Origin: an alpha proteobacterium MED-G09
Lineage (GTDB): Bacteria > Pseudomonadota > Alphaproteobacteria > MED-G09
Assembly (NCBI GenBank): GCA_905182015.1
Contig: CAJIZT010000008.1
Coordinates: forward strand, 57,801 to 121,800
Length of the DNA stretch: 64,000 nucleotides
Direction of reading: 5' to 3'
Shown: piece by piece, positions 4,287 through 54,814 of the stretch
Numbering within the stretch: position 1 is the stretch's first letter
How the letters are laid out: the number at the start of each line of letters is the position of its first letter
Notes under the pieces: model-generated
Told to the model about the DNA's origin: nothing
Seen by the model: the letters and a program-made list of their open reading frames with translations, nothing else
The model's database searches: none
Made by a program: the position numbers and the translations under genes

Positions 4287-4667
4287 TTAACCTAATACTC
4301 TAGATGTTTCGGCCTCATAGGCTTTCATATCAAAATAATCCCGCCAATTTGATATTAATCCATCCTGAAACTCCATCACTCCCATAACAAGAATATCCAT
4401 CCACTGACCATTTACCTCAAACCGATCAGTTCTTTCAGTTAAGACAATTCCATCAGAATTTTCAGCGATATTATGAACTATCCATTCAATATTGGATGTC
4501 ATTTGAACGAAAGGCTCTAAATAAGCTCGAATTTGTTCATGGCCTTTTTGTGGATCCATCGGTATATTATGATAGAAACAATTTTCAGAAAGTGCGCCCA
4601 TTATTCCATCAATATCACGATTATTCCAACATTCAATAAATTGTAAAGCTCTAGTTGTATTGTTCAT
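4287..4667 (-). CDS. NTF2-like superfamily protein (SnoaL / limonene-1,2-epoxide hydrolase-like), 126 aa.
   Basis: Its size and composition fit a small alpha+beta cone-fold protein. It is the last gene of a minus-strand run: ggt, acyl-CoA synthetase, then this gene. Confidence 0.5.
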   Translation of the reverse strand: MNNTTRALQFIECWNNRDIDGIMGALSENCFYHNIPMDPQKGHEQIRAYLEPFVQMTSNIEWIVHNIAENSDGIVLTERTDRFEVNGQWMDILVMGVMEFQDGLISNWRDYFDMKAYEAETSRVLG

Positions 4668-4684
4668 ATTTTCCTCTTTTTTTG

Positions 4685-6202: not shown

Positions 6203-6219
6203 GAACTAATTCCTCTTAA

Positions 6220-7914
6220 TTACTCAACATTCAACACTAAACCCTCACGCCTAGGGTCTGCTCCGCCGACGTATCCGGTAGGTTTTTTTAATGCAATATG
6301 TAGCCCGCTTCTTTTGGGCATCACCCTCACCCTATGCCCCATAGCTTCTAAATCAGACTGCAAGTCTTCCAAAATTGTATTTTCTTCTAATTCAGTCACC
6401 TTGCCCTTATTCATGTAATGGGGTAATTTTACTATATCCTTTGGATCTAGATTCCAATCAATAAGCCCTAGGACTGATTTAGTAACATAGTTTATTATAC
6501 TTGTTCCGCCTGGTGATCCTGTTAAAGCAAACAAATTACTGTCTTTAAAAATAATTGTCGGAGTCATGGATGACATGGGTCTTTTATTACCCTCAACCCT
6601 ATTTGCGATCTTTTTTCCATTTACCTCAGGTATCATTGAAAAATCTGTTAATTCATTATTTAATATAAAACCTCCTGCCATTAAATGACTGCCAAACGGC
6701 CCCTCTACCGTTGAAGTCATGGAAACCGCATTACCCTCATTGTCTACTATAACAAAGTGGCTAGTCGAGGGTTTAGAGATATCTATATTTTTTTCAAAAT
6801 CTAATGCACCTTTTGGTCGACCATGGGTAACTTCTTTTACAAGTTCTTTTTGGTTAATCAAAGACCTTCTTTGATCAATGTATTCGTCACTTAATAATCC
6901 ATCTACAGGTACTTTTACAAAATCTGGATCAGCCATATAATAACCTCGATCAGCATAGGCTAGGCGACTAGCCTCAGAAAAAAGATGCACCATTTCTTTA
7001 GATTCTGGTTTTAGTGACTTAATATCAAAATCTTCTAATATTTTTAGCATTATTAGCATTGTCAATCCCCCTGAGGATGGGGGTGGCATACTACAGATAT
7101 TATAAGACCTATACATTTGACAAAGAGGCTCGCGCCAAATAATTTCGTAATTTTTTAAATCACTCAAAGTCATTAATGCCTTACTATCAAATTCTTTTAA
7201 GGCATTTATTATTAAGTCAGCAGTTTCTCCTTCATAAAAATCTATTGCGCCCAGTGATGCTATTCTTCTGAGAGTTTTAGCGTATTCTTGATTTCTAAAA
7301 ATATGCCCTACAGGCAAAGGTTCTTTTTTTTCTCCAACACCTTCTTGATAATAAAGAGAGGCAGCAGGCTCAATTGTTTTTAAATAACTTAAATAACTCA
7401 ATGTTCGATTAAGATCTGGTGAAACAGCGAACCCATCTTCAGATAATGTAATGGCGTAATCAAATAGCTTAGCCCACTCCAATCTACCAAATTTTTTATG
7501 AGATTCTTCCAGCAACCTTATAACCCCGGGAACCCCAACTGAATTTACTCCAATCACAGCATCCGGATAAAAAGGTTTTTTATTCCCACTTTTATCCAAA
7601 AAAAGATCGTCTTTTGCTCTTGAAGGTGCAGTTTCTCTTCCGTCGAGAGAAAATAACTTTGATTGTCTTGCATCCCAATAGAGCATAAATGCTCCGCCAC
7701 CAATCCCTGTTGCCTGAGGTTCTGTAAGTGTTAAAACTAATTGTACTGCAATAGCTGCATCAATAGCATTACCACCTCTTTTTAATATTTCAGAAGCAGC
7801 TTTTGAGGCGTGTGAATTTGATGTAGCGATTATCCCCTTTCCTGGTTTTAAATCGCTTGCATTACAAGCTGTTATAAAAAAAATAGAAAACACAGAAAGA
7901 ATAAAAAGTCTCAT
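6220..7914 (-). CDS. ggt: gamma-glutamyltranspeptidase, likely a lipoprotein.
   Basis: N-terminal signal peptide with lipobox (FFITAC), and a TSHFVIVDNEGNAVSMTSTVEGPFGS segment around the catalytic Thr. The product is 564 aa. Confidence 0.85.
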   Translation of the reverse strand: MRLFILSVFSIFFITACNASDLKPGKGIIATSNSHASKAASEILKRGGNAIDAAIAVQLVLTLTEPQATGIGGGAFMLYWDARQSKLFSLDGRETAPSRAKDDLFLDKSGNKKPFYPDAVIGVNSVGVPGVIRLLEESHKKFGRLEWAKLFDYAITLSEDGFAVSPDLNRTLSYLSYLKTIEPAASLYYQEGVGEKKEPLPVGHIFRNQEYAKTLRRIASLGAIDFYEGETADLIINALKEFDSKALMTLSDLKNYEIIWREPLCQMYRSYNICSMPPPSSGGLTMLIMLKILEDFDIKSLKPESKEMVHLFSEASRLAYADRGYYMADPDFVKVPVDGLLSDEYIDQRRSLINQKELVKEVTHGRPKGALDFEKNIDISKPSTSHFVIVDNEGNAVSMTSTVEGPFGSHLMAGGFILNNELTDFSMIPEVNGKKIANRVEGNKRPMSSMTPTIIFKDSNLFALTGSPGGTSIINYVTKSVLGLIDWNLDPKDIVKLPHYMNKGKVTELEENTILEDLQSDLEAMGHRVRVMPKRSGLHIALKKPTGYVGGADPRREGLVLNVE

Positions 7915-7956
7915 AGATACTCCGCGGTTATTAATTTTAGATACTATACAATTCTA

Positions 7957-8985
7957 ATGCCTTTGTTTAGTTTCCTTATAATGATTAATTTAGGAAAAAG
8001 AAATTTAATAACAGATGTTGATGGTATCTTGGTTGGCAATGCACATGATCAAGGTATTGGCACAGGTTGTACTGTTATTACACCAATTGAAGGCACTTTA
8101 GCATCTGCAGATGTTAGGGGAGGGGCGCCCGGAACAAGGGAGGTCGGGGCATTAAATCCTTATAATCTTGTTAATTCAATCGACTCAGTTGTACTGTCCG
8201 GAGGATCAACTTGGGGTCTCGATGCAGCTAGTAGTGTAGCGAATTATATTGGGTCACAGGGAAGGGGATTCAGCGCATCTCCAGAATCCAAGCATGTTCC
8301 TATGGTACCAGGAGCAATTCTATATGACCTATCAAATGGAGGTGATAAAAAGTGGGGGGACAGTTCACCATACTACGATCTTGGGATTAAAGCGGCATCC
8401 AGTATATCCGATAACATAATATTAGGAAATGCAGGAGCGGGATATGGTGCTAAAGCCGGATCTCTTAAAGGAGGGCTCGGAAGCGCCTCCTTTGTATGTA
8501 GTGACGGAATACAAGTAGGTGGTTTATTTGCGGTTAATAGTTATGGCTCCACACTTAATAATGAGACAGGACAATTTTGGGCTTCAACAGACGAAAATAA
8601 AAATGAATTTGGCGGACGAGGCGTGCCTAACTATGCTCCGATGAATATACTGGCCGGAACAAAGGCTGGTAAACCACTTCCTGGACAAAATACAACAATA
8701 GGGGTTATAGCAACTAATGCAAAATTAGATGCAAAAGCAGCTAAGAGAATAGCTATAATGGCTCATTCGGGTATGTCGCGAGCTATTAGGCCTATTCATT
8801 CCCCAGTTGACGGTGATGTAATTTTTGTACTAAGCACTGGTACATTAAAAAAAGAAATAAAGCTCAACGATATAAATATTATAGGAGAGTTAGGGGCAAG
8901 AGTATGCTCAAGATCAATAGCCAGAGGTGTTTTCGAGGCTGAAAGTATCTTAGGAATGAAGTCTTGGAAAGAAGTATATGAATAA
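7957..8985 (+). CDS. DmpA/ArgJ-fold (S58, P1-family) aminopeptidase. An alternative start is the ATG at 7981.
   Basis: RNLITDVDGILVGNAHD...GTGCTVI...GGSTWGLDAAS...TIGVIATNAKL pattern, typical of DmpA-type Ntn-hydrolases. It is divergent from ggt with only about 42 bp between them. Confidence 0.7.
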   Translation: MPLFSFLIMINLGKRNLITDVDGILVGNAHDQGIGTGCTVITPIEGTLASADVRGGAPGTREVGALNPYNLVNSIDSVVLSGGSTWGLDAASSVANYIGSQGRGFSASPESKHVPMVPGAILYDLSNGGDKKWGDSSPYYDLGIKAASSISDNIILGNAGAGYGAKAGSLKGGLGSASFVCSDGIQVGGLFAVNSYGSTLNNETGQFWASTDENKNEFGGRGVPNYAPMNILAGTKAGKPLPGQNTTIGVIATNAKLDAKAAKRIAIMAHSGMSRAIRPIHSPVDGDVIFVLSTGTLKKEIKLNDINIIGELGARVCSRSIARGVFEAESILGMKSWKEVYE

Positions 8986-9023: not shown

Positions 9024-9100
9024 GCGCCGGTAGCTCAGCTGGATAGAGTACTTGACTACGAATCAAGGGGTCAGGGGTTCGAATCCCTTCCGGCGCACCA
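9024..9100 (+). tRNA. tRNA-Arg (anticodon ACG), 77 nt with an encoded CCA.
   Basis: GCGCCGGTAGCTCAGCTGGATAGAGTACTTGACTACGAATCAAGGGGTCAGGGGTTCGAATCCCTTCCGGCGCACCA. The acceptor stem pairs GCGCCGG with CCGGCGC; the anticodon loop is CTACGAA; the T-loop is GGTTCGAATCC. Confidence 0.9.
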
Positions 9101-22544: not shown

Positions 22545-23837
22545 TTAAGATTTATCACTATCCACTAAATAAGGACTTTTATTATTCATTAAGCCTTTAT
22601 ACATTAAACCATCCTTCATAACCATATCAATGCGGCCATGGTCTTGAAGAATCGTAATATCCTCCAAAGGATTTCCATCCACAATAACTAAATCTGCTAA
22701 TTTTCCTTCCTCAATAGTTCCCAATGAGCCTTCTGGATCCATAGCTTGACCGCCAAAGCGGGTTGCTGAATGAAGAGCTTCAGCATTAGTAAAACCAAAC
22801 AAATTTACATAATGCTCTAAATCTTTTGCATATGTTCCATGCGGCGCTATATCCAGACCATAATCTCCACCAACAAGAATTCTTATACCTTCTTTTTTCA
22901 TTCTTTTATATGATACAATCGTTGACTCAACTTCTGCTTTGTAAGCATCCACTTCTCTACTATCTTTTGAATATCCCATCTTTTCAGCATTTTCTAAAAA
23001 TGCTATTTCCCAAGCAATCCCAGGACCAACAAAAACTCTATCTTTATTCTCTATCAAAAGATCCAAGGCTTCATTATCTATATAATTTGCGTGACCGATA
23101 AAATCTATACCACTTTTAACTGCCTGTTTAACAGCTTCTGCTGAACGAGCATGACATGCAACTTTCATTTTTTTTCTATGTGCCTCATCTACAAGCGCCT
23201 CAACCTCTTCGTCTTTATAGCCAAGGTCTCCAGGTCTTCCTTGGAGGGAAATTAATTCTCCATCAATCATAACCTTTACAACATCTACTCCATTTTTCCA
23301 TAGCGTTCTAACGGCCTTCCTTATTTCCCAAGGACCATCTGTTATCATAGCTAAACCTTCAGTTTGTGGTTTAGCATAATCAGGATAAGTATCGGCATTT
23401 CCTCCTATTGCACATATATCCCTTCCTCCAGCGAGAAGTCGCGGGCCAAGGATTCTTCCACTATTTATTGCATCCCTTAAAAATACATCAATTCTATGAA
23501 TTGATCCAAAGCTAATAGCTGAGGTGAAGCCAGAGCCAAGCATAATACGAGCATTATCAACTGTTTTGATCATAGCCTCCTCAACTGGCGTCTTATCTAG
23601 CTCCAAAGGGCCATTATTAGTATAAGAGATATGTGCATGTGATTCTGTCATGCCCGGTATTACAGTTTTTCCCTTAAGGTCAAAAACTTCAAAATTATTT
23701 AATGAGCCATTGAAGTCCTTGGAAGGTCCGGAATAACAAATTATATTTTCATCAATCACAATTGTTGCATCACTGATTAATTTATCGTCATTGCCTGAAA
23801 AAAGATTTAAATTGGTTAGAATTTTTTTTTTATTCAT
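22545..23837 (-). CDS. Amidohydrolase-family metal-dependent hydrolase.
   Basis: HxH metal-binding motif (MTESHAHISY) and a TIM-barrel amidohydrolase pattern. The product is 430 aa and is the last gene of a five-gene minus-strand operon. Confidence 0.65.
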   Translation of the reverse strand: MNKKKILTNLNLFSGNDDKLISDATIVIDENIICYSGPSKDFNGSLNNFEVFDLKGKTVIPGMTESHAHISYTNNGPLELDKTPVEEAMIKTVDNARIMLGSGFTSAISFGSIHRIDVFLRDAINSGRILGPRLLAGGRDICAIGGNADTYPDYAKPQTEGLAMITDGPWEIRKAVRTLWKNGVDVVKVMIDGELISLQGRPGDLGYKDEEVEALVDEAHRKKMKVACHARSAEAVKQAVKSGIDFIGHANYIDNEALDLLIENKDRVFVGPGIAWEIAFLENAEKMGYSKDSREVDAYKAEVESTIVSYKRMKKEGIRILVGGDYGLDIAPHGTYAKDLEHYVNLFGFTNAEALHSATRFGGQAMDPEGSLGTIEEGKLADLVIVDGNPLEDITILQDHGRIDMVMKDGLMYKGLMNNKSPYLVDSDKS

Positions 23838-23852
23838 TTTATTAACCGCTAA

Positions 23853-24827
23853 CTATAATCTGAGAAGTTTTATTGCATTTTTAGTAAGGCTTGGTGCAAA
23901 ACTTTCTAATTCCTTCGGCGTATCCCAGCCACCAAGATTTGTTCCATACACTAGGCGTTCAGAGCCAACTAGATCAAAAAGCATTTTTTGAGAATTTTCT
24001 CCATGAACATGAGCATCGAACCATAATTTTTTTAACTCGTTTTTAAAACCATTTTTTTTCACACCCTCAGGTGCCCAGTCTCTAAATGACGACATTTCAG
24101 AGAACCTTTCAACAAGATATGGCATTGCGCCTGCCCCATGAGAAATACAAACATCAAGATTTGGGTGACGGTCCATCACTCCTCCAATAATCAAAGTGCC
24201 CGCAGCAAGTGTTTCTTCATAAGCGTATCCCAGGATTATACTGAGATCAAACCTTCCCAACCTCCAATCATCAGGCCCTTTCGACCCACCTGTTGAGGCG
24301 GGATGAAGAAACAATGGTATATCAAGTTCAACAACTGTTTTATAAAAGTCATCTAACCTTGAGTCATCCAAGCCAAAAGGATAATCAGTTCCCGTTGATA
24401 CAGCCTTTAATCCAAGAGTTTTTACTGCTCTCTCCATCTCTAAGCATGCAGCATCAACATCTTGCATCGGTAGTGCGGCAGAACCAATCAATCTATCAGG
24501 AAATTCTGCAACAGATTCCGCCATAGCATCATTGTGGATTTTACAAAATTCTATAGCGATATCATTTTCAATTCTATGAAACATTGTTAATGGATTGGGA
24601 GATAAAAGCTGAAGATCAATTCCTAACTTATCCATAAGCTCAATACGAAGATGGTTTTCCATAAAAACAGTATCTTCATATTTCATTGGTTGCATTTTAT
24701 AGTCACCAATTCGAAAAAAATGAGTTCCATTTTTATCAACACCTGACTCCGGACCATATTTCCCGGCCATTCCAAATACTTTTTTTAGAATAATATGAGC
24801 GTGTGTATCAATTACTCTTGGAGCCAT
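23853..24827 (-). CDS. Amidohydrolase-2 (ACMSD/LigW-like) family protein, probably a decarboxylase or hydratase.
   Basis: N-terminal VIDTHAHII, with internal HxxxH and D residues typical of PF04909. The product is 324 aa. Confidence 0.65.
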   Translation of the reverse strand: MAPRVIDTHAHIILKKVFGMAGKYGPESGVDKNGTHFFRIGDYKMQPMKYEDTVFMENHLRIELMDKLGIDLQLLSPNPLTMFHRIENDIAIEFCKIHNDAMAESVAEFPDRLIGSAALPMQDVDAACLEMERAVKTLGLKAVSTGTDYPFGLDDSRLDDFYKTVVELDIPLFLHPASTGGSKGPDDWRLGRFDLSIILGYAYEETLAAGTLIIGGVMDRHPNLDVCISHGAGAMPYLVERFSEMSSFRDWAPEGVKKNGFKNELKKLWFDAHVHGENSQKMLFDLVGSERLVYGTNLGGWDTPKELESFAPSLTKNAIKLLRL

Positions 24828-24853
24828 TTTTATTATCCCTTACTGATTTTAAT

Positions 24854-25204
24854 TTAATTAAAAAAGGTTTCTCTTGTATTCCCTTCCGCAGAATATACGG
24901 GCTCATGCTTGTCAATTAAATACATTTGGTTTTCTGTATTTGTCACGCCAACAGAATGAATAAAATTCTTCATATCGTTATAATATTTATGTTTAAAATG
25001 ATCAGCGAGACTTTTTTCATCTTCCCATAATTCATAAACCTGAATTCTATTGAATACAGCAGGGTCTGGTGCAAAGCAGTAACTTATGCAGCCAGGTTCC
25101 TCTAGACGGGTTGCTAGCTGAGTTTCTGTAGTAAGGTCAATAACCTTATCTCTATCAACCTCATTCGCAAATTCTAAAATAGCTGAAATTATGATCATTT
25201 GCAT
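24854..25204 (-). CDS. ABM (antibiotic-biosynthesis-monooxygenase / Dabb) domain protein.
   Basis: 116 aa. The core GCISYCFAPDP...IQVYELWEDEKSLADHFKHKYYNDM matches the ferredoxin-like ABM fold. It is a paralog of the 54510..54809 gene. Confidence 0.5.
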   Translation of the reverse strand: MQMIIISAILEFANEVDRDKVIDLTTETQLATRLEEPGCISYCFAPDPAVFNRIQVYELWEDEKSLADHFKHKYYNDMKNFIHSVGVTNTENQMYLIDKHEPVYSAEGNTRETFFN

Positions 25205-25216
25205 TCTCCTATAAAA

Positions 25217-25762
25217 TTAATCTCTTTCATATGCGGGGTCAGAGTGTCCGCCACGGCCTGGGGCTGGTCCAGGGCCTTCTCGCCAGCCTTTATCGGTGGC
25301 GGGCTCAAATCTTACCCAGTCATGCACACCTTGCCTTTTAATAATTCTCCATTCGCCGTTTCGTTTTTCAAGTTTATCAATATACCTTCCTGAAACAAAA
25401 ACATCCTCATCAATCTCTGGATTATGATCAGCTACAAAACCTCCCGCATCTTTAAAATCCTTTCCTTTGGCTATCCGATGGTAAGCTTGCCAGTAAGATT
25501 CGGACCAAGCAATATTTCCCTCAACTTCAATAAGAATATTTCCTACAAGATGCTGTGTATGTTCCATTTTTGATAATATATCGAAAGCAAAATCACAGAA
25601 TTGAGCAGAAGGGCCTTTGTACTCTCCGTGATGGTGAATCGAATCTTCATGAAAAACTGATTCAAGAAGCTCTCGATCAAGTCTATCAATGGCCCTGCAG
25701 TATTTATAAACAACATCCATTACAGCTATTTTATCAGCCATTAATTCTAACGAATTACTCAT
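25217..25762 (-). CDS. SnoaL_4/NTF2-like protein, a putative beta-like partner of the adjacent Rieske oxygenase.
   Basis: IAVMDVVYKYCRAIDRLDRELLESVFHEDS...GRYIDKLEKRNGEWRIIKR is the SnoaL_4 signature. It has a Gly/Pro-rich tail and is paralogous to the 32753 and 49547 genes. Confidence 0.6.
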   Translation of the reverse strand: MSNSLELMADKIAVMDVVYKYCRAIDRLDRELLESVFHEDSIHHHGEYKGPSAQFCDFAFDILSKMEHTQHLVGNILIEVEGNIAWSESYWQAYHRIAKGKDFKDAGGFVADHNPEIDEDVFVSGRYIDKLEKRNGEWRIIKRQGVHDWVRFEPATDKGWREGPGPAPGRGGHSDPAYERD

Positions 25763-25795
25763 AGTAAACCCCCTTTATTTTATTAAGACCACTCC

Positions 25796-27145
25796 CTAAT
25801 TATTCTTGGAAAGATATTTATCAATATTTTCATGGAAATAACGAATTCTATTTTCTTGAGACGGCATATAATCACCAAGATATCCTCGAGAACTGAGGCC
25901 TTTTTGTTGGCTTGTCCATATTGCCACATCTTCACTTATGCCAGGTCCAACATCCACCTCTGAGTGATGACCTTCAAGATGAGGAACCTTAGTATTTATA
26001 TCTGTTTCCATACCAAGGCTTGGTGAGTGATACTTATCAACACCTTTAGGAAATAAAGTTAGATACCAATAATCAAAATAGCACTTGGTAGGGTCGGTAG
26101 GGTGAGGCGACGCCCTTAGCCACTGCATACCATCAGGTTTAACGCTGAAAGACATGTTTGGGAAAATCGTATAATGATAATGATCCGTTAACTGAGTGTC
26201 TTTAAACTTACTAAAGTCATAACCCTTTTCTTTATCTAATTTACGTTTTTGTTTTTGAAGGTCTCCTCTTATATCAAGGAGCTTTCCCTTATAGTCTTTG
26301 GGGTCCATATCCCAATATTCAATATGCGGGCCAATCATTTCTAAAATTTTTTCTTCTTCGCTATATACGCTCTCACTAGGAATGAAGCCAGGCATAAGCA
26401 TTCTAGAATGCATGCTCTCGTACATATCAAATTGACAGGATTGGTATTTTTCTTCGGCCACATATTTTAGATTTGGATGCACATAGGGCGTATGGTAAGA
26501 TTCATTAAAGTTATCCTGAACACATTTCCAATTCCAATCCCCTTCAATTGTTACCCAGTGAGTTCGTATCATGTCAGAGATTGGATACGCCTCCAAATGC
26601 TCCATTATAGGGTTAAGATACTCTTTAAGTGGCTTACAATCAGGGTCTAAGTTAAAAAAGATAAAACCCGCCCAGACTGTAGATTTTATTTCAACAAGAT
26701 TCCTTCTTCCGCAAGGTGATCCCTGGAGAAAGTCTTCTTCGTCCGGAACCCATTTGAGTGTTCCGTCCAAACCAAACTTCCAGGCATGGTAGGCACAATC
26801 AAAACTCTCTAGATTTCCTTCCTTAACTTGGACAAGTTGATTCCCTCTATGCTGGCAAACATTATAAAAACACCTAATCTTTGAATCTTCACCTTTGGCG
26901 CATAAAATAGATTCTGAACCAAATTCAAATGTAAAAAAATCACCAGGGTTTGATAATTGCTGCTCAAGGCCGGCCACTTGCCAAACCTTAGTCCATAACT
27001 TATCCCATTCAAGCTTCATAAATTCTTTTGAAGTATATCGGTCTCCAAGGATAGGTTGGTTGCCAAGCTTGGGTTCAGGATCTTTACTCCAATCTTCGCT
27101 AAAAAATTTCTCTGCTAAAGGTTTTTTTTCTGCTTGTTTTACCAT
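25796..27145 (-). CDS. Rieske [2Fe-2S] non-heme-iron oxygenase alpha subunit (paralog A).
   Basis: Rieske motifs CFYNVCQHRGNQL...CAYHAWKF, and a mononuclear iron motif NFNESYHTPYVH (H-x4-H). The N-terminus is the canonical RYTSKEFMKLEWDKLWTKVWQ. Confidence 0.85.
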   Translation of the reverse strand: MVKQAEKKPLAEKFFSEDWSKDPEPKLGNQPILGDRYTSKEFMKLEWDKLWTKVWQVAGLEQQLSNPGDFFTFEFGSESILCAKGEDSKIRCFYNVCQHRGNQLVQVKEGNLESFDCAYHAWKFGLDGTLKWVPDEEDFLQGSPCGRRNLVEIKSTVWAGFIFFNLDPDCKPLKEYLNPIMEHLEAYPISDMIRTHWVTIEGDWNWKCVQDNFNESYHTPYVHPNLKYVAEEKYQSCQFDMYESMHSRMLMPGFIPSESVYSEEEKILEMIGPHIEYWDMDPKDYKGKLLDIRGDLQKQKRKLDKEKGYDFSKFKDTQLTDHYHYTIFPNMSFSVKPDGMQWLRASPHPTDPTKCYFDYWYLTLFPKGVDKYHSPSLGMETDINTKVPHLEGHHSEVDVGPGISEDVAIWTSQQKGLSSRGYLGDYMPSQENRIRYFHENIDKYLSKNN

Positions 27146-27266
27146 TTTCTCGCTCTATTTAAGTTACCGAATTCAACAATATATTAACATTAAAATTACA
27201 TATGATACAAATCAGCAAAAATATAACTAATAGTCAATAATTAATGAATGATGTAAGATTGTTGTA

Positions 27267-31269: not shown

Positions 31270-32703
31270 ATGGGAAAAATCGACATACATAGTCTAGCGA
31301 TTGATGGAAAAGATCAAAAAAATCTAAGAGGCGATCCGATAACAAATGATCGCTACTTTTCTAAAGATTTTATGACAAAAGAATGGGACAATATGTGGAC
31401 TAAGGTCTGGCTAATAGCTGGCAGAGAAGTTCAAATTAAAGAGCCCGGTGACTATATTGTTCATGACCTTATAACAGAATCTGTAATTATTGTTAGACAA
31501 GACGATGGATCAATAAAAGGCTTCTATAATAGCTGTGCCCACAGAGGTCAGAGACTTGTTAATTTTGATAGCTCACAAGATTCTTTTAGATGTCCCTATC
31601 ATGATTGGCAATTTGGATTAAACGGAGATGTAATTGGCTGCCCAGATCCCGATGACTTTCCTGAAGGAAGTCCAATCGGAAAAAGAAAATTAGTAGAGGT
31701 TCGGGTAGATAGCTGGGATGGTTTTATTTTTTATACTATGAGTGACGAGGCGCCTGAGCTTTTAGAGTATCTAGATCCTTTGCCTGAAATTTATAAAAAT
31801 CATAATTTTAAAGATCAGATTAGAGCTCAATGGGTAAGAGTAGAGCTAGATGTTAATTGGAAATATTTTTGTGATAATTTTAACGAGTCATACCACACAA
31901 GATTTGTGCACCCTCAAGTTCCTTCAGTAATAGATCAAGATCATTTTACTTCAAGATATGAAATGTTTCCTAAAGGTCATGCAAGAATTGTCCAAATGGG
32001 TCGGCCTTCTTTGCGTGATAGAATTCCTGAAGGTGAAGATCATCCCTTTAAAATGCTTCTGGAGGACTGGGGGATAGATATAACCAAATATCCTGATTAT
32101 GAAACACTTTCTGAGCAAGGGTGGGTAGACCTAAAGGAAGCCAAAAGAAAAAATTATAAAGAAAAAGGTTATCATCATTATGAAAATCTCTCAGATGAAG
32201 AGTTAACTGAAAGTCCTTTTCAATTTATTTTTCCAAATATTGCCATGGGTGTTCAAGCAGACGGCTGCATTCTTTTAAATTGGTTCCCTCATCCGACAGA
32301 TCCTGAAAAATGTTTTTTTGATCTTTGGGACATGGGTTATCCAATCGGTGGTGCAGCGAAAGGAATAGGTAAAACAGGTAGAGAGAACGATCAAGAATTT
32401 ACTTCAACATCAGCAGGTATAGGTAAAAAAGATAGTTACGTTGGGGAATTTGTTAGTCGTACTAAAGTAAATCCAGTTAAACTTCAAGAAGTTGAATTAG
32501 ATTTTCGTGATTATGATGGAGGGAAAGGTGTTGAAGATCTATGGGATCATGTTGTTTATCAAGACTGGCAGCTTACAGATGGTTTAAGGCGCGGCGTTAG
32601 ATCTAGAGGGTATCAAGAACCTTATCTTGCGTCTCAAGAGACAAGAGTAAGATTTTTTCATGAAAAACTTCATGATTATTTAAACGGAAAACCACCGAAA
32701 TAA
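31270..32703 (+). CDS. Rieske non-heme-iron oxygenase alpha subunit (paralog B).
   Basis: FYNSCAHRGQRL...CPYHDWQF, and NFNESYHTRFVH. Confidence 0.85.
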   Translation: MGKIDIHSLAIDGKDQKNLRGDPITNDRYFSKDFMTKEWDNMWTKVWLIAGREVQIKEPGDYIVHDLITESVIIVRQDDGSIKGFYNSCAHRGQRLVNFDSSQDSFRCPYHDWQFGLNGDVIGCPDPDDFPEGSPIGKRKLVEVRVDSWDGFIFYTMSDEAPELLEYLDPLPEIYKNHNFKDQIRAQWVRVELDVNWKYFCDNFNESYHTRFVHPQVPSVIDQDHFTSRYEMFPKGHARIVQMGRPSLRDRIPEGEDHPFKMLLEDWGIDITKYPDYETLSEQGWVDLKEAKRKNYKEKGYHHYENLSDEELTESPFQFIFPNIAMGVQADGCILLNWFPHPTDPEKCFFDLWDMGYPIGGAAKGIGKTGRENDQEFTSTSAGIGKKDSYVGEFVSRTKVNPVKLQEVELDFRDYDGGKGVEDLWDHVVYQDWQLTDGLRRGVRSRGYQEPYLASQETRVRFFHEKLHDYLNGKPPK

Positions 32704-32752
32704 AATTTTTATTCAAAATATAATAAATTCTTAATTTGTAGGAGGGTAAAGA

Positions 32753-33268
32753 ATGACTAAAATAGCAAATATAGATACATTATTAGCTGAGCAGGCAATA
32801 AGGCAAGCTGTAACAGCGTATTCCAGAGGATGTGACCGTTGTGATTTGGATATCTTTAAGTCCGCGTTTCATAATGACGCCGAAGTAAAATATGGAACTT
32901 ACGATGGCCATTATGAAAAATTTTGTGAAGATATTGTAGAAGGAAATTTAACTCTCCAAGATACCTCTCACACAATTATTAATGAGCATTATACTATTGA
33001 TACCGCCTCCAATAAAGCGTCGGGAGAAGTTTATGTTTTAGCATTTTGGGCTGTAGGCGGACATAACTATACATGCTCTGGGCGTTATATCGATAAGTAT
33101 GAATCCAGAAATGACGATTGGAGAATTACATTTCGTCAATACGTCTATGACTGGAGTAGGACTACAGAATATTGCGGAGATGATCCAAACAAGCTATTTG
33201 AGGGGTTAATCTACCGAGGCACACAAAACAAAAATGATCTTTCTTATAAAATATTAAATGAAAAATAA
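32753..33268 (+). CDS. SnoaL_4/NTF2-like protein (partner of paralog B).
   Basis: QAVTAYSRGCDRCDLDIFKSAFHNDA...GRYIDKYESRNDDWRITFRQ. Confidence 0.6.
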   Translation: MTKIANIDTLLAEQAIRQAVTAYSRGCDRCDLDIFKSAFHNDAEVKYGTYDGHYEKFCEDIVEGNLTLQDTSHTIINEHYTIDTASNKASGEVYVLAFWAVGGHNYTCSGRYIDKYESRNDDWRITFRQYVYDWSRTTEYCGDDPNKLFEGLIYRGTQNKNDLSYKILNEK

Positions 33269-33272
33269 GATA

Positions 33273-34532
33273 TTATTTTTTTAAGAATTTAATTGGTAAC
33301 TCTTTCATCTGATGAATATATAAACTTGAATGATGAGGAATCTCGGGTAGCGGTCTAGCAAGCTCTATATTTTTTAATCTTTCAAATAAGTGTATGAATG
33401 CAGTTTTCATCTCTGCTCGCGCAAGCATTGCTCCAACACAATGATGGGGGCCCGATCCAAAAGCTAAATGTTTACCAACATCCTTACGTTCAACATTAAA
33501 CTCTTCAGGATTTGTAAATATTTCTTCATCCCTATTAAATGACGCATACCTTACTAGCAAAACGCTTCCCTTCTTAATACTCTCTCCATCAATCTCAGTG
33601 TCTTCTGTTACAGTTCGAAAAAGGCCCTGAACAGGTGTTTCAAATCTGATAACCTCCTCAACAAAGTTAGGTATAAGGTCTATATCTTCAATGATTTTAT
33701 TCATTTGTTTGGGATGTTTCAATAAAAGCCAAAGTCCGTGCGCTATTGAACTTGTGGTTGTCTCATTGCCTCCGGCTAATAATTGAGCAACCAGCCCTTG
33801 AAGCTCATCATTAGTTAGGTTCTCACCTCCATCAAGCTTAAGGTTTACTAATTCAGATATAATGTCATCTGTTGGATTTTTTCTCTTATCATTGAATATT
33901 TTATCAAAATAATGTTGGGACTCTGCCTCCAGGTGAGCAGCTTTCTTCATTTCTTCTACGTTTGCAACCCCGAACGAAACAATCATTGCATCTGACCATA
34001 ACTTTAGTTTCGGGAGCATTGATCTTGGTACACCCAGCTGGTCGGCAATAATTGTAGATGGAATTGGAACCGCATAATCATTAACAAACTCACACTCGCC
34101 TTTCTCTATAAAGGAATCAATTAAGTCATTCACGACTTTTGAAATATAAGGCTGCATCTCTTTAACTCTACTAGATGTAAACGCTTTGTTTAATAATTTT
34201 CTATATTTACTGTGTAGAGGTGGGTCTGTTCTTTGAAGTGTCTCCACAAAAGACCCCACACCATAATTCTTAATAATCTCCGCATGTGCCTTAATGCCTT
34301 CGTCTTCATAGCTATCGTGCTGGGTAGGTTTATTAGAAAACTTTTTTGTATCAAGAAGAATTTGTCTTCCATCTTTATATTTTGTGATCATATAAAAGCC
34401 TAAATCAGGCATTTTATAGACTGGGCATTCTGCTCGAAGATTCTTATAGCTCTCATATGGGCAACTTTGAATCTTGGGATCCATAAAATTTATATTTTTT
34501 ATTAAAGAGCTCTGCTGATTTTTTTCTTTCAT
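33273..34532 (-). CDS. Cytochrome P450 (paralog 1).
   Basis: Heme-thiolate loop FGSGPHHCVGAMLA, an ExxR motif (EEVIRFETP), and an I-helix AGGNETT. Confidence 0.85.
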   Translation of the reverse strand: MKEKNQQSSLIKNINFMDPKIQSCPYESYKNLRAECPVYKMPDLGFYMITKYKDGRQILLDTKKFSNKPTQHDSYEDEGIKAHAEIIKNYGVGSFVETLQRTDPPLHSKYRKLLNKAFTSSRVKEMQPYISKVVNDLIDSFIEKGECEFVNDYAVPIPSTIIADQLGVPRSMLPKLKLWSDAMIVSFGVANVEEMKKAAHLEAESQHYFDKIFNDKRKNPTDDIISELVNLKLDGGENLTNDELQGLVAQLLAGGNETTTSSIAHGLWLLLKHPKQMNKIIEDIDLIPNFVEEVIRFETPVQGLFRTVTEDTEIDGESIKKGSVLLVRYASFNRDEEIFTNPEEFNVERKDVGKHLAFGSGPHHCVGAMLARAEMKTAFIHLFERLKNIELARPLPEIPHHSSLYIHQMKELPIKFLKK

Positions 34533-34724: not shown

Positions 34725-37013
34725 ATGCTAGATATCAAAAATATTCTTTTAATTACTAGTGCAATTTTTTTAATTGCCCCAGTTAACACTTTATTCTCTC
34801 AAGAATCACCGATTGAAAACACTTATGGCTTAGAAGAAATAGTTGTTACAGCTCAAAAAAGAGAGGACTCTATTCAGACAGTCCCTATAGCTATAACAGC
34901 AGTCAGCGGAGATATTTTAGATCAACGAGCTGTTGTTAATCTTGAAAGCTTACAAGGTTTAGTCCCGGGTGCCCAGATTGGACAATTCGCAAATACTCCT
35001 CATGGCGCAGTATTTAATATTAGGGGTATGGGAGCTATTGAGCCAGATCCATATGCAGGTAGTGCTGTTTTGGTTACAATCGATGGTGTTCCGCAATATT
35101 TTAATATGACCTCATTAGTTGACCTATTTGACGTTGAACGTGTTGAGGTTTTAAGGGGACCACAAGGAACTCTATTTGGTGCTAATTCCACTGGAGGCGT
35201 TGTAAATATTATAACAAAAGCTCCTTCAGGTGAATATAATGGGAAGGTCCAAGTTACTGCTGGGGATTGGAACAGATTAGATGTCAAGGCTGCTGCAGAT
35301 TTACCAATAAACGAAAAATTATCTCTTAGGCTTTCAGGCTTTCATCACGGACGTGATGGATGGATTATAAATGCTTATGACGGTTCTGACATGGGAAGTG
35401 TTAATGTAAACTCTATCCGTGCAACTTTAAGATATGATGCAGGATCCGGTTTTGAAGCAACATGGCGTAATGAAATTTTAAGATCAAAAAATGGAGGCCC
35501 GTATATAGGTATGGGCGCTTATCCAGGTGAGGCAGAATATACGGCACCGGGAACGATAGGTGCGGGACAGCATGGCGGAGTACAGTATGCCAGTTATTGC
35601 ATGCCTGAAGGTACCCCTTGTAAAGCTCGTGATACATATTATTCTGCCAATAGCTCAGAAAAAGATATGTCAGATATGAATGTAGATTCCTCAACTCTAG
35701 AAATGGTCTGGAATGATACATCATTTGGAACAATCACCTCAATTACAAGTTATAAAAAGTTTGATCTTCATGAGTACACTGATCAAGATGGTACTGTTGT
35801 ATATCATTCTGGAACAGATCGTAGGACTGACGGCGACCAAATGACTCAAGAAATAAGAATTAATTCTGAAGTTTCAGATAACATAGATGTAGTTTACGGT
35901 TTATATCTTAGTGAAGACTCGTATTATCACACACAAAACTTTAATGCTCAATTCGCTTCCCCCGGCTTTAGTCAGCTATCGTCCCAAGATCAAGAAAGAA
36001 GCTCACAAGCATTATTTGCTCATAGCTTTATTGATTTATCAGACAAACTGAGACTCCAGGTTGGTGGTCGATATTCAAAAGAAGAAGCTGATATGAAAGT
36101 TGAAGTAGTAAATTTCATAAGCTTAGATGGTATATCAAGATACTTTGGGGACGATCGTCTGGCTGATTTTGGTATAGACTTTGGTGCATCAGGTAAGGAT
36201 GAGTGGACTGATTGGTCTGCAAAAGCTGGTCTTGACTACCAAATTTCAGAGAACACTTTGGCATACGGACATATATCACGTGGCTTTAAATCTGGAGGCT
36301 TCGTTGGAAGAATTACAGTTCCTGAAGATATTGGTCCATATGATCCAGAAATAGTTGAAACCATCGAAATTGGTGTAAAAAGTGATCTATTGGATAATAA
36401 ATTAAGATTGAATATAAATATTTTTAAAAATGACTATCAAGATCTTCAATTAGCATTAATTTATTTTACAAAAAATGCAGCGGGCTTTGATGTAAATGGT
36501 AATTCAATACTTAATGCTGCCGATGCAACTACTCAAGGTATTGAAGTAGAGTTTTTCGCTGCACCATCTGCTGCCCTTAGAGTTAATGGATCAGTAACTT
36601 ATCTTGACGCAGAGTATGATGATTTTCCATACTTAAATACTGATGGTTCTACCACCAACTTAAGGGGGTATAGATTACAAAATTCTCCAGAAATTACAGC
36701 CAGCTTTGGTTTTGATTATACTTGGAGAATGGGTGATGGAGATATGAGCTTATCTGCATTATATAAATATAATGATGAAAAGTTTAATACCAGTCTATTA
36801 AACACACCTCGATCAACTATTCAGGAAACAGACTTGGTTGATGCTAATCTTATGTGGAGTCCTGACAGTGATGACTGGTCAGTAAATTTTTGGGTTAAAA
36901 ATATTGCTGACGAAAGATATATTTCTAGTGTTTTTGAGGCACCTGGAGTTTTAGCAATCGTAAACTTTTTACCCCCAAGGGAGTTCGGAGTGTCTTTTGA
37001 TTTTAATTGGTAA
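34725..37013 (+). CDS. TonB-dependent outer-membrane receptor (TBDR-1).
   Basis: Signal peptide; plug domain with EEIVVTAQKRE and VLRGPQGTLFG; a long beta-barrel ending in an aromatic residue (FDFNW). Confidence 0.85.
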   Translation: MLDIKNILLITSAIFLIAPVNTLFSQESPIENTYGLEEIVVTAQKREDSIQTVPIAITAVSGDILDQRAVVNLESLQGLVPGAQIGQFANTPHGAVFNIRGMGAIEPDPYAGSAVLVTIDGVPQYFNMTSLVDLFDVERVEVLRGPQGTLFGANSTGGVVNIITKAPSGEYNGKVQVTAGDWNRLDVKAAADLPINEKLSLRLSGFHHGRDGWIINAYDGSDMGSVNVNSIRATLRYDAGSGFEATWRNEILRSKNGGPYIGMGAYPGEAEYTAPGTIGAGQHGGVQYASYCMPEGTPCKARDTYYSANSSEKDMSDMNVDSSTLEMVWNDTSFGTITSITSYKKFDLHEYTDQDGTVVYHSGTDRRTDGDQMTQEIRINSEVSDNIDVVYGLYLSEDSYYHTQNFNAQFASPGFSQLSSQDQERSSQALFAHSFIDLSDKLRLQVGGRYSKEEADMKVEVVNFISLDGISRYFGDDRLADFGIDFGASGKDEWTDWSAKAGLDYQISENTLAYGHISRGFKSGGFVGRITVPEDIGPYDPEIVETIEIGVKSDLLDNKLRLNINIFKNDYQDLQLALIYFTKNAAGFDVNGNSILNAADATTQGIEVEFFAAPSAALRVNGSVTYLDAEYDDFPYLNTDGSTTNLRGYRLQNSPEITASFGFDYTWRMGDGDMSLSALYKYNDEKFNTSLLNTPRSTIQETDLVDANLMWSPDSDDWSVNFWVKNIADERYISSVFEAPGVLAIVNFLPPREFGVSFDFNW

Positions 37014-39803: not shown

Positions 39804-41051
39804 TTATCTTTTTCTAAATTTAATATGAAGCTCTTTTAGCTGATGTAAAAAAATACTCGGTTGATGAGGAATATCTGGTAGGTCTTTAGCTAGCTCGATA
39901 CCATCAATACGATCGAAGAAATGTTTAAAGGCTGCTAGCATTTCCGCCCTAGCCAAACTTGCCCCGATACAATGATGAGCGCCTGATCCAAAAGCAAGAT
40001 GTTTTCCAACATCTTTTCGTTCCACATTAAATATCTCAGGATCCTCGAATATATCTTCATCTCTATTTAATGCAGCATATCTGACCAGAAGAGTACTTCC
40101 TTTTGGGATCTTTACACCTCTCATCTCAGTATCGACTGTTGCCGTTCTAAAAAGGCCTTGAACAGGGGTCTCATAACGAATAGTTTCCTCAATAAATTTT
40201 GAAATAAGATCGTTATTTTCCATAACTTTTTTCATTTGCTCTGGGTGTCTTAATAATAACCACATTCCGTGCGCTATTGAACTTGTTGTTGTCTCATTTC
40301 CACCTGTTAATAATTGATTGATCAGATCTTGAAGCTCATCTTCTGTTAACTTTCTTTCTCCATTAAAGTCAGCATTAACTAACTCTGATATAATATCGTC
40401 TGTAGGTTTTATTCTTTTTTCCTCAAAAATACCTTTAAAATAATGTTGGGACTCAACCTCAAGACGAGCCGCATTTTCCATCTCCTCCACACTCGCCATC
40501 CCGCTAGCCGGAATTAACATTGCATCTGACCAGGATTTAAATTTACCTAAGTACTCTCTTGGAACACCTAACTGATCAGCAATAATTGTACACGGAATAG
40601 GCACGGCATATTCTGAAACAAAATCACATTCGCCGTTATCAATAAACCCATCAATTAAGTCATTGACGACACCAGAAATGTAAGGATTCATTTCCTTAAC
40701 CCTGCTTAAGCCAAAGGCTTTATTTAAAAGTTTACGATATTTTGTATGAATTGGCGGATCTGTTCTTTGGAGTGTCTCTGGTCTTTTACCAAAACCCTCG
40801 GTATTCATTATTTCATGATGGCGTTTTACGCCTTCACTTTCATAGCCTTGTTGATGTGAGTATGTATTAGAAAAAGTAACGGTATCTTTCATAACCATCC
40901 TAGCATCATCATACTTCGTGATCATATAAAATCCTACCTCTGGCATCTTATAGACAGGACACTCGGATCTAAGGGTTTTATAAGCTTCATAAGGACAGCT
41001 TTGTGTTGCCGGGTCCATAAAGCTTATCGATTCTAAGTCTAATTTACTCAT
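39804..41051 (-). CDS. Cytochrome P450 (paralog 2).
   Basis: FGSGAHHCIGASLA, an ExxR motif (EETIRYETP), and TGGNETT. It shares about 60% identity with paralog 1 by eye. Confidence 0.85.
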   Translation of the reverse strand: MSKLDLESISFMDPATQSCPYEAYKTLRSECPVYKMPEVGFYMITKYDDARMVMKDTVTFSNTYSHQQGYESEGVKRHHEIMNTEGFGKRPETLQRTDPPIHTKYRKLLNKAFGLSRVKEMNPYISGVVNDLIDGFIDNGECDFVSEYAVPIPCTIIADQLGVPREYLGKFKSWSDAMLIPASGMASVEEMENAARLEVESQHYFKGIFEEKRIKPTDDIISELVNADFNGERKLTEDELQDLINQLLTGGNETTTSSIAHGMWLLLRHPEQMKKVMENNDLISKFIEETIRYETPVQGLFRTATVDTEMRGVKIPKGSTLLVRYAALNRDEDIFEDPEIFNVERKDVGKHLAFGSGAHHCIGASLARAEMLAAFKHFFDRIDGIELAKDLPDIPHQPSIFLHQLKELHIKFRKR

Positions 41052-41075
41052 AAAAATCCCCCCCGAGATAATTTT

Positions 41076-41984
41076 TTATACTCTATCCCAATTATGTTTT
41101 TTTATCCAATCTTCAAAATACGTTGGCTTAACGCCTAGCATTTTATAAACTGGATCCATATCAACCGCCAGAGGTGACGGGTTTTGTTCATTATACCAGC
41201 TATAAAAAGCAGCCATCCCCCCATAAATAGATTGGTCCTCATATACTTCTGATCCGGTCACCAATTTACTCATTGATCCAGCAAAATTTTCCGGCTTCAG
41301 GCTTGAGAAAGTAATTTCACGACCAAGTACTTTTGTAAATTTTTTAGCTACCTCATCTCCAAGAAGAACCTCGGGACCCCCGACTAGAATCTTATCTCTT
41401 TTAAAGTTATTATTAGATAACGCTGCAACCATAAAAGCCGCCACATCATCAAGACATATCCATGATATTTTTAACTCTGGTGAGCATGGGTAGGCAAAGG
41501 TATTATTATTTGTAATAGATGGTTTAGACCAAAAACGAGTAAGGTTATCCATAAAGACTACTGACCGAATAACAACATACTCCATGCCGCTTTCTTCCAT
41601 ACACCTTTCAATCTCTCTTCTTCCATCATGAGCCTCTAAACCATTATCCTTGGGCGCAACATAACAACTGGTATTAAAAACAATTTTCTTTACTCCCATT
41701 TTTGCACCGGCTTTTGTAATATTTTCCCCCCATTGTTTTGCGGTTGCTTTATCAAAAACAAATGGCAAATTCATTGCGATAGCATCAACTCCATCGGATG
41801 CAACCATTAGGGATTCTAAGTCAAAAAGATCGGCTCGAATTGTTTCAATATTTTTAGAAAAGTCATCATTATATTCTGAAGGATTCCGAGTTACTGCTCG
41901 AACCTTATATCCTTTTTCCAATAATACATTCACAAGTGGTACGCCCTGATCTCCACTAGCTCCATAAACAAGGATTTTATTCAT
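41076..41984 (-). CDS. NmrA-like NAD(P)-binding protein. The tracked ORF extends to 42005; the likely start is MNKILVYGASGDQG.
   Basis: N-terminal Rossmann motif LVYGASGDQG. The size fits the NmrA/PCBER family. Confidence 0.65.
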   Translation of the reverse strand: MNKILVYGASGDQGVPLVNVLLEKGYKVRAVTRNPSEYNDDFSKNIETIRADLFDLESLMVASDGVDAIAMNLPFVFDKATAKQWGENITKAGAKMGVKKIVFNTSCYVAPKDNGLEAHDGRREIERCMEESGMEYVVIRSVVFMDNLTRFWSKPSITNNNTFAYPCSPELKISWICLDDVAAFMVAALSNNNFKRDKILVGGPEVLLGDEVAKKFTKVLGREITFSSLKPENFAGSMSKLVTGSEVYEDQSIYGGMAAFYSWYNEQNPSPLAVDMDPVYKMLGVKPTYFEDWIKKHNWDRV

Positions 41985-43623: not shown

Positions 43624-43685
43624 TTAACTTTTCCTTTTGAGAAACATTAATCAAAAAATTAGAATTTATCTAGATAAAAAAAAGG

Positions 43686-43701
43686 GCTCCGCGGAGCCCT
43701 A
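43686..43701 (-). terminator. Intrinsic terminator just downstream of TBDR-2 (GC-rich palindrome with a U-run on the minus strand).
   Basis: GGGCTCCGCGGAGCCC is a perfect palindrome. It is flanked by AAAAAAAA on the plus strand, which is an 8-U tail on the minus strand. Confidence 0.6.
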
Positions 43702-43725
43702 ATTTAATCAATTAAGAACAATAAG

Positions 43726-46116: not shown

Positions 46117-46285
46117 AGTAATAAAATATTATTTTCGATAAGCATGATTATAGTGTTTTTTATTAATTACAAGTGCATACGCATCTAAGAGTATCGATTT
46201 CTAAATTAATGACTTATTCAAGGATATTGGGTCACAGATAAATAAAATATTTAGGCAAATATTACAATTGGATAGTCAAGAAAAA

Positions 46286-46304
46286 GGCTCCGGGGAGCGG
46301 AGCC
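46286..46304. terminator. Orphan GC-rich hairpin with flanking A5 and T4 runs inside a 457-bp intergenic region.
   Basis: AAAAA GGCTCCG GGGAG CGGAGCC TTTT. The stem sequence matches the 43686 hairpin. No gene lies upstream on either strand for it to terminate. Confidence 0.4.
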
Positions 46305-47362: not shown

Positions 47363-47373
47363 GGATAAAAATT

Positions 47374-48165: not shown

Positions 48166-48190
48166 TTATCTTAATAATAAAGGATTTAAA

Positions 48191-49543: not shown

Positions 49544-49546
49544 AGA

Positions 49547-54809: not shown

Positions 54810-54814
54810 ATTTT

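Follow-up and report, generated by a model that had tools for sequence, protein, structure and literature searches.

The DNA examined here is a 64-kb stretch, hereafter the window, of contig CAJIZT010000008.1 from an alpha proteobacterium MED-G09 genome (assembly GCA_905182015.1; positions 57,801 to 121,800), and its subject is a run of five genes on the minus strand. In their 5' to 3' order, the genes encode the alpha subunit of a Rieske non-haem iron oxygenase (Rieske alpha), an NTF2-like SnoaL_4 protein, an ABM-domain protein (ABM1), an ACMSD-like Amidohydro_2 protein and a binuclear-metal Amidohydro_1 protein; the last three are referred to below as the trio (Table 1). These five open reading frames (ORFs) and their domains had been named in an earlier note made from the sequence alone, and both the ORF list and the Pfam calls, all five of which exceed their curated cut-offs, bear it out. 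From gene content, motifs, folds and neighbourhood statistics, we infer co-transcription, an order of reactions and a class of substrate. The reading that we prefer, and consider rather probable, is that of a co-transcribed catabolic operon in a marine alphaproteobacterium of the PS1/OCS116 clade, in which two independent modules, joined in the PS1 lineage, stand behind one promoter. Little is known of the carbon sources of PS1/OCS116 bacteria, which are common members of the surface-ocean plankton.

Table 1. Features of the five-gene run and of related gene blocks in the window
Feature	Position	Strand	Details
Promoter-like element	27205-27242	-	aattaTTGACTatta...tgtgctgatt; TTGACT at 27232-27237
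Rieske non-haem iron oxygenase alpha subunit	25796-27145	-	449 aa; PF00355 and PF00848
SnoaL_4 (NTF2-like) protein	25217-25762	-	181 aa; PF13577, 65 bits
ABM-domain protein (ABM1)	24854-25204	-	116 aa; PF03992; first gene of the trio
ACMSD-like Amidohydro_2 protein	23853-24827	-	324 aa; PF04909
Binuclear-metal Amidohydro_1 protein	22545-23837	-	430 aa; PF01979; Xaa-Pro dipeptidase / Arg carboxypeptidase / ochratoxinase group
Island block	39804-50065		P450 (-), NmrA (-), KstD-like FAD_binding_2 (-), TonB-dependent receptor (-), short-chain dehydrogenase (SDR) (+), enoyl-CoA hydratase (+), Rieske alpha 48086-49543 (+), SnoaL_4 49547-50065 (+)
ABM2-headed operon	54510-59403	+	ABM2 (54510-54809), MBL-fold protein, Rieske alpha (55724-57109), SDR, SDR, dienelactone hydrolase

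Gene packing and conservation of the trio

The intergenic gaps within the run (22545-27145) are 33, 12, 26 and 15 nt. Every start is preceded by a purine-rich stretch resembling a ribosome-binding site, the weakest being that ahead of the last gene, and a consensus pattern scan of the minus strand found no terminator-like site inside the cluster. The genes thus have the predicted form of an operon, with one strand, short gaps and no internal terminator, and the operon-like packing described in the earlier note stands. Horizontal transfer of the five genes was considered and set aside, as base composition gives no sign of it (gene G+C content of 0.345-0.41 against 0.365 for the window).

In order to assess conservation of the gene order, a genome collection was scanned with the Amidohydro_2 protein as anchor, and the window proteins were mapped by tblastn onto the 80 loci obtained (given below as L numbers). 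Sixteen loci belong to PS1/OCS116 bacteria and 64 to other bacteria, namely Pseudomonadales (including OM182 and Halieaceae/Luminiphilus), Actinomycetota and other Alphaproteobacteria. The closest genome matches were single-cell genomes and metagenome-assembled genomes (MAGs) labelled PS1 clade, OCS116 cluster or Rhodobiaceae, and Amidohydro_2 is 94% identical in Hyphomicrobiales bacterium AH-657-K06. The ABM gene lies directly upstream of Amidohydro_2 in 16 of 16 PS1 loci and 40 of 59 others, Amidohydro_1 directly downstream in 13/13 and 41/60, and the full trio is present in 13/13 and 27/55, respectively; some lineages keep only Amidohydro_2 plus one of its two partners. A Rieske alpha gene on the same strand, at most 1.5 kb upstream of Amidohydro_2, was found in every PS1 locus (16/16) and in none of 53 loci elsewhere. 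The unit conserved across phyla is the trio and not the five-gene string, and the link between trio and Rieske genes is lineage-specific, though recurring in the PS1 lineage. The expectation of the earlier note that homologues should be co-localised elsewhere therefore holds, with the five-gene order and a shared promoter-like motif in six of the 16 PS1/OCS116 loci, but the string itself proves to be a composite. No ABM-Amidohydro_2 gene fusion (a Rosetta-stone signal) occurs among 58 loci.

Within PS1, the trio follows a Rieske gene in two arrangements. The upstream Rieske alpha is of the window type in six loci and, in the other ten, of the type encoded at 48086 in the window, a paralogue 40% identical to the first. 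The order Rieske, SnoaL_4, ABM, Amidohydro_2, Amidohydro_1 is that of the six loci L006, L007 and L018-L021; in L018-L020 the five genes are contiguous with the island block that contains the 48086 gene, from which about 13 kb separate them in the window. In L008-L017 and the Tara contigs L001 and L002, the window-type Rieske/SnoaL_4 pair adjoins a cytochrome c gene, and the trio sits several kb away, right behind the 48086-type orthologue (at a distance of 9 nt in L013). The trio is inserted in ten PS1 genomes between the 48086-type Rieske alpha and its SnoaL_4 (L013, 8298-12855). That SnoaL_4 gene lies there on the opposite strand, abutting the end of Amidohydro_1, whereas in the window it is on the same strand as its Rieske gene (48086-50065); an alpha/SnoaL_4 pair therefore need not be co-translated.

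Gaps of about 9-22 nt separate the trio from its upstream gene in relatives of both PS1 arrangements. They leave no room for a promoter of its own, so that co-transcription with the Rieske gene would be the most economical reading, and in PS1 a Rieske-containing transcript appears to extend through the trio. Upstream of the window-type Rieske gene, a 38-nt element (27205-27242) is kept in the window and in L006, L007 and L018-L021, while the remaining spacer has diverged. Loci with the element are exactly those with the five-gene order, and it is missing upstream of the same Rieske gene where the trio sits elsewhere. The consensus promoter scan did not call this element, which we take to be the putative promoter of the five-gene operon.

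The unrelated alphaproteobacterial MAG L087 carries P450, SnoaL_4, SDR and Rieske genes after the trio, all on one strand. A larger conserved unit with SDR and enoyl-CoA hydratase genes upstream of the trio was considered and rejected, the PS1 and gammaproteobacterial copies being only about 27% identical. A full-text search of the literature found no description of the five-gene cluster, and in a plasmid collection the Rieske and Amidohydro_2 proteins matched only uncharacterised, generically annotated sphingomonad and Azospirillum clusters.

Predicted chemistry of the five proteins

The Rieske alpha protein carries the Rieske motif C97-x-H99...C117-x2-H120 and the iron motif E215-S-Y-H218-x4-H223, both at least 97% conserved in an alignment of 122 sequences (the window protein, three window paralogues and about 118 database homologues); candidates for the carboxylate ligand of the iron are D338, D351 and D406. 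Its PDB matches cover residues 36-234 only, CntA (1e-28) and NDO (2e-24) being the best. None of the NCBIfam equivalogs GbcA, HcaE, BenA, AntA and AndAc was reached (74-109 bits against cut-offs of 670-830), GbcA coming nearest with 109 bits against 670. The family is large, with members from sphingomonads, Actinomycetota and Caulobacterales 51-59% identical to the window protein, and many copies of the alpha/SnoaL_4 pair occur in marine PS1 bacteria and in sphingomonads. Homologues elsewhere have as neighbours SnoaL_4, SDR, TetR, FAD_binding_2 plus NmrA, ABM, Glyoxalase_4, TonB receptor and P450 genes, and are not found among amidohydrolases. Iron-sulphur electron-transfer genes are limited in the window to a POR-family 2-oxoacid:ferredoxin oxidoreductase-like gene and the Pyr_redox_2/Fer4 gene that it overlaps (521-4140), which are not of the types usually serving Rieske oxygenases.

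The SnoaL_4 protein had been described as the partner of the alpha subunit. It is adjacent and co-oriented, but its reading as a canonical beta subunit is uncertain. PF00866 (Ring_hydroxyl_B) scores 16.9 bits against a cut-off of 27 and matches residues 119-144 only. The AlphaFold2 model (mean predicted local distance difference test score, pLDDT, of 90.4) has as its top Foldseek neighbours 3ef8 (a putative scytalone dehydratase), LinA, BaiE, Rv3472 and scytalone dehydratase, and its structural top 50 contain no canonical beta subunit, although two beta-like structural-genomics entries occur at ranks 13 and 31. A profile of the family gives full-length matches to Rv3472 (5e-12), 3ef8 (4e-10), BaiE (1e-6) and LinA (2e-6), whereas true beta subunits (TPADO, HcaF and 3eby) are matched weakly and in the C-terminal half only. 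The catalytic residues of BaiE are Y30, D35 and H83, and those of LinA are D25 and H73. In the profile alignment, the BaiE residues fall on Y21, D26 and H71 of the window protein; across 31 members, the two other window paralogues among them, D26 and H71 never vary and Y21 is conserved to at least 90%. NTF2-like and dimeric alpha/beta-barrel proteins serve as hydroxysteroid dehydratases in the degradation of bile salts (PMC12175502), a precedent for SnoaL_4 and ABM-type proteins as eliminases.

A divergent, purely structural beta subunit in a classical alpha3-beta3 Rieske oxygenase is nevertheless a reading to which we give appreciable weight while leaning away from it. Three of the five Rieske alphas in the window are followed by a co-oriented SnoaL_4 gene at 33, 49 and 3 nt, the C-terminal half of SnoaL_4 gives weak matches to AndAd as well as to the beta subunits named above, and some SnoaL_4 homologues carry a precomputed PF00866 match. 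The tail of the protein (residues 150-181; 25217-25309) holds a conserved GxRxxDPxY motif with R171, D175 and Y178, and its low pLDDT (48-63) is what would be expected of a docking segment; it may be a docking peptide for Rieske alpha or for a neighbouring protomer. Set against this are the missed PF00866 cut-off, the absence of a canonical beta subunit from the structural top 50, the nearly or fully invariant Tyr/Asp/His set of catalytic type, the two window alphas that have no adjacent SnoaL_4, a 59%-identical alpha orthologue with no SnoaL_4 within 8 kb (L003), and the ten PS1 loci in which the 48086-type alpha and its SnoaL_4 are on opposite strands. A catalytic role as an eliminase or isomerase thus seems somewhat more likely than a purely structural one, and the two roles are not exclusive.

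Amidohydro_2 has human ACMSD (2-amino-3-carboxymuconate-6-semialdehyde decarboxylase, EC 4.1.1.45) as its best sequence match (4e-34), and ACMSD is also the best structural match of its AlphaFold2 model (pLDDT 88.6; template modelling (TM) score 0.81-0.85); no NCBIfam family was matched. H9, H11, H175, H230, N297 and D302 occur without exception in the 114 homologues. N297, however, aligns with the strand-8 Asp that is a metal ligand in ACMSD (D291 of the human enzyme, D294 of the P. fluorescens enzyme), and is followed in all 114 by an invariant GGWD302TP motif. In 103 of the 114, Arg241 is also retained; it corresponds to ACMSD Arg235*/239*. In the related IDCase, D323N and D323A mutants have been crystallised with bound substrate (PDB 4lak, 4lam and 4lal), which suggests that the Asp is needed for turnover in decarboxylation. 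With Asn297 in the place of this ligand, the decarboxylation that had been assigned to Amidohydro_2 is doubtful, and hydratase, hydrolase or lactonase chemistry with a His-activated, metal-bound water is predicted to be at least as likely. Genes of the kynurenine or 2-nitrobenzoate pathways, such as 3-hydroxyanthranilate dioxygenase, were found neither in the window nor in the 80 loci as probed with the window proteins.

Amidohydro_1 has a full HxH/K/H/H/D site (H67, H69, K188, H229, H249 and D325), at least 97% conserved in 51 orthologues. Full-length PDB matches are 2qs8 (2e-61), Cc2672 (2e-46) and ochratoxinase (2e-32), and it remains below the NCBIfam equivalog NF051886 (265 against 500 bits). 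Its nearest solved relatives (2qs8, the Arg carboxypeptidase Cc2672, N-acyl-Pro/Xaa-Arg hydrolases and ochratoxinase) cleave an amide beside a terminal carboxylate. Twelve gammaproteobacterial loci have an acyl-CoA synthetase gene behind the trio on the same strand, and seven have in addition a group II pyridoxal phosphate (PLP) decarboxylase; this PLP enzyme of about 410 aa resembles sphingosine-1-phosphate lyase or MfnA (L095, 12238-15101; L033, L037, L044, L052 and L055-L057). A carboxylesterase or beta-lactamase-like esterase lies divergently upstream of the gammaproteobacterial trio. The synthetase and decarboxylase partners would fit hydrolysis of an N-acyl compound to an acid and an amine or amino acid, and the extension as a whole is a hint that lipid amides or N-acyl amino acids are catabolised.

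ABM1 passes PF03992 with 33 bits (cut-off 23.1) and does not meet the LsrG equivalog (22 against 135 bits). Many of its residues are at least 95% conserved across orthologues, and neither a close solved structure in the PDB nor a named family in NCBIfam was found for it. A second ABM gene does exist at 54510 and heads a Rieske operon, as had been claimed, but the shared identity of 35% over 80 residues makes ABM2 a distant paralogue rather than the same protein. The ABM2-MBL arrangement is kept in L009-L014 and L016. The proposal that ABM proteins are recurrent accessories of these oxygenases holds for PS1 only. Within that clade, ABM genes are repeatedly found close to Rieske genes, but elsewhere the conserved partner of ABM1 is Amidohydro_2 (40/59) and not a Rieske protein.

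A proposed joining of two modules and competing explanations

If the five genes are two joined modules, as we prefer, the first consists of Rieske alpha and SnoaL_4. Rieske alpha would draw electrons from a reductase/ferredoxin encoded elsewhere and hydroxylate a hydrophobic substrate, probably alicyclic or aromatic, and SnoaL_4 would most likely carry out elimination or isomerisation of the oxygenated intermediate and may also dock on the alpha subunit. The trio would be a hydrolytic unit with its own evolutionary history. Amidohydro_1 would cleave an amide beside a carboxylate, of the N-acyl-amino-acid type, and Amidohydro_2 would use a metal-bound hydroxide in order to hydrate or hydrolyse an unsaturated or beta-keto carboxylate, possibly decarboxylating it. 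The ABM protein would act as a cofactor-free oxygenase, isomerase or dehydratase.

Several points weigh against this reading. No ferredoxin or FNR-type reductase gene or motif that could serve the Rieske or P450 enzymes was found in the 64-kb window, and a reductase/ferredoxin may be encoded elsewhere in the genome; the one motif match in the window lies on the strand opposite an SDR gene and was dismissed as spurious. NCBIfam and PDB searches found no characterised orthologue for any of the five proteins. The adjacency of SnoaL_4 to Rieske alpha (three pairs, 3-49 nt) also fits a beta-subunit role, and the conserved, low-confidence C-terminal tail of SnoaL_4 suggests protein docking. Asn297 could mean that metal binding by Amidohydro_2 is altered or absent. 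PS1 lacks the acyl-CoA synthetase and PLP decarboxylase that accompany the gammaproteobacterial trio. The co-transcription of the five genes, finally, is predicted from their spacing only.

A more specific version, to which we give tentative and rather low credence, would make the first module a hydroxylase-eliminase couple, in which Rieske alpha hydroxylates a C-H bond and SnoaL_4 then removes water, so as to bring about net desaturation or ring activation of alicyclic compounds. The trio would be a widespread but unrecognised module for the breakdown of amide-linked lipids or N-acyl amino acids, extended in Gammaproteobacteria by the synthetase and the PLP decarboxylase, in which Amidohydro_2 does not decarboxylate; both parts may represent uncharacterised chemistry.

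The earlier note had read the genes as a single compact pathway. This would be one dedicated linear route from ring oxygenation by an alpha-beta Rieske dioxygenase, through the ABM protein and non-oxidative decarboxylation by Amidohydro_2, to amide or ring hydrolysis; its substrate could be, for instance, an aromatic amide or the carboxylate of an N-heteroaromatic ring. In picolinate degradation, the Amidohydro_2 decarboxylase PicC acts before amide hydrolases, and this is the analogue for such a route. Co-localisation in PS1 supports it, as do the tight packing behind a single upstream promoter-like motif, the position of the trio directly behind a Rieske gene in 16 of 16 PS1 loci, the decarboxylases that are the closest relatives of Amidohydro_2 in sequence and structure, and the N-demethylase and monooxygenase types (GbcA, CntA and Stc2) that give the best profile matches of the alpha subunit. 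However, the trio is a unit of its own, its Rieske partner differs between PS1 subclades (the two 40%-identical types, with the other paralogue in ten loci), and no Rieske gene precedes it outside PS1 (0/53). Furthermore, the strand-8 Asp is an Asn in 114 of 114 homologues, and IDCase D323N with bound substrate (4lak and 4lam) suggests impaired turnover; SnoaL_4 misses the PF00866 cut-off and resembles eliminases more closely in structure; and no ring-cleavage dioxygenase lies in or adjoining the operon. We regard the linear pathway as unlikely.

It is just as improbable, in our view, that adjacency is incidental and the trio self-contained, acting for instance on N-acyl amino acids or a lipid amide with no metabolic link to Rieske oxygenases: the trio does occur with no Rieske gene in Gammaproteobacteria, Actinomycetota and other Alphaproteobacteria, often beside housekeeping genes such as ArfB, EF-P, SMC and ZipA, and its position within the PS1 island shifts between subclades, yet all 16 PS1 loci, in two arrangements, place it immediately behind a same-strand Rieske gene with gaps too short for a promoter, and L087 joins trio and Rieske genes on one strand as well. 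The repeated co-orientation of trio and Rieske genes argues for shared regulation at least.

The catabolic island and known systems

The five genes are one edge of a larger, rearranging oxidative catabolic island. The earlier note had counted two Rieske operons, which is too few: the window holds five Rieske alphas (25796, 31270, 48086, 52958 and 55724), including the pair at 31270 that it did not list. Three of them are followed by SnoaL_4 genes (25217, 32753 and 49547). Two P450s (33273 and 39804), two TonB-dependent receptors (34725 and 43726), several SDRs, an enoyl-CoA hydratase, two MFS_2 transporters, an MBL-fold protein and a dienelactone hydrolase are also encoded. The block at 39804-50065 is contiguous with the five genes in L019 and carries the trio behind the 48086-type Rieske gene in L013. 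The island is best described as aimed at hydrophobic substrates that would be imported through TonB-dependent receptors.

Several further features of the window were noted. At 31270-34532, a Rieske alpha of 477 aa and a SnoaL_4 of 171 aa on the plus strand are followed by a convergent P450 (33273-34532), beyond which lies a TonB receptor (34725-37013). A KstD-like FAD_binding_2 protein (548 aa, 41977) and an NmrA-like protein (41076) form a pair at 41076-43623. The same pair is present in all PS1 island variants examined (L013 and L019) and beside a Rieske alpha homologue in the unrelated alphaproteobacterial MAG L090 (10179-12743), and it looks like a conserved sub-module. Between TonB receptor and P450 (37118-39799) are a protein of the glutathione-dependent formaldehyde-activating (GFA) family, a 336-aa ORF with no Pfam match and a NosD/beta-helix protein of 411 aa; a similar beta-helix protein and an unannotated ORF occur in the sister contig L001 (501-2470). 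A limonene-epoxide-hydrolase-like SnoaL_2, an acyl-CoA synthetase, a gamma-glutamyltranspeptidase and an S58 (DmpA-type) aminopeptidase are encoded at 4287-8985; this cluster is unrelated to the operon and is further evidence of amide and CoA-thioester catabolism in the genome. Rfam and tRNA scans for regulatory RNAs in the window returned only a tRNA-Arg (9024-9100).

These findings bear on both ecology and annotation. The window reflects a heavy investment of PS1 bacteria in Rieske and P450 oxygenases together with TonB-dependent uptake, which suggests that they oxidise dissolved organic matter of a hydrophobic and probably alicyclic kind. For annotation, the functional unit that is conserved is the ABM/Amidohydro_2/Amidohydro_1 trio. 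The ACMSD label should not be transferred to this Amidohydro_2 subfamily because Asn replaces the strand-8 Asp, and it should not be taken for granted that the NTF2 proteins beside these Rieske enzymes are inert beta subunits.

Compared with known Rieske oxygenases, the window alpha shares its Rieske [2Fe-2S] and two-His iron motifs with the alpha-only monooxygenases CntA, GbcA and Stc2 and with the alpha3-beta3 dioxygenases of the naphthalene/biphenyl type, and has a bridging Glu as in CntA. It differs in having a SnoaL_4 partner instead of PF00866 and in the absence of nearby electron-transfer genes. SnoaL_4 resembles the NTF2-like eliminases (the bile-acid 7-alpha-dehydratase BaiE, the LinA dehydrochlorinase, scytalone dehydratase and Rv3472) with target-normalised TM scores of 0.75-0.80, but at only 17-23% identity, and unlike them it carries about 30 additional conserved residues as a C-terminal tail and is genetically coupled to Rieske alpha genes. 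Amidohydro_2 has the HxH and the equivalents of His177 and His228 in common with ACMSD and the COG2159 group (LigW, gamma-RSD, IDCase, LigJ and LigY), whereas the replacement of the strand-8 Asp by Asn deprives it of a defining feature of ACMSD and the COG2159 decarboxylases. Amidohydro_1 shares the complete binuclear ligand set of the COG1228 amidohydrolases (Cc2672, the Sgx9260-type N-acyl-Pro/Xaa-Arg hydrolases and ochratoxinase/ADH3), but unlike the known enzymes it is consistently paired with an Amidohydro_2 gene.

At the level of whole clusters, the toolkit of Rieske, P450, SDR, KstD-type, TonB and CoA-thioester genes is common to the window and to terpenoid and steroid clusters (the dit cluster for abietanes and the bile-salt clusters of Sphingomonadaceae), and also occurs in homologous sphingomonad loci. 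Towards the steroid clusters this is an analogy by gene content, not orthology. A steroid pathway, which the KstD-like, SDR, enoyl-CoA hydratase and NTF2 genes and the ChsH2/Ltp2-like neighbours in one gammaproteobacterial locus had prompted us to consider, was rejected: no hallmark genes of the KshA, HsaC/D or TesB type were found, and Rieske alpha matches KshA at only 1.8e-4. The five-gene set is an ordinary breakdown operon and belongs to the already known Rieske-based catabolic clusters, among which its eliminase-like NTF2 partner and its Asn-variant, ACMSD-like enzyme are unusual.

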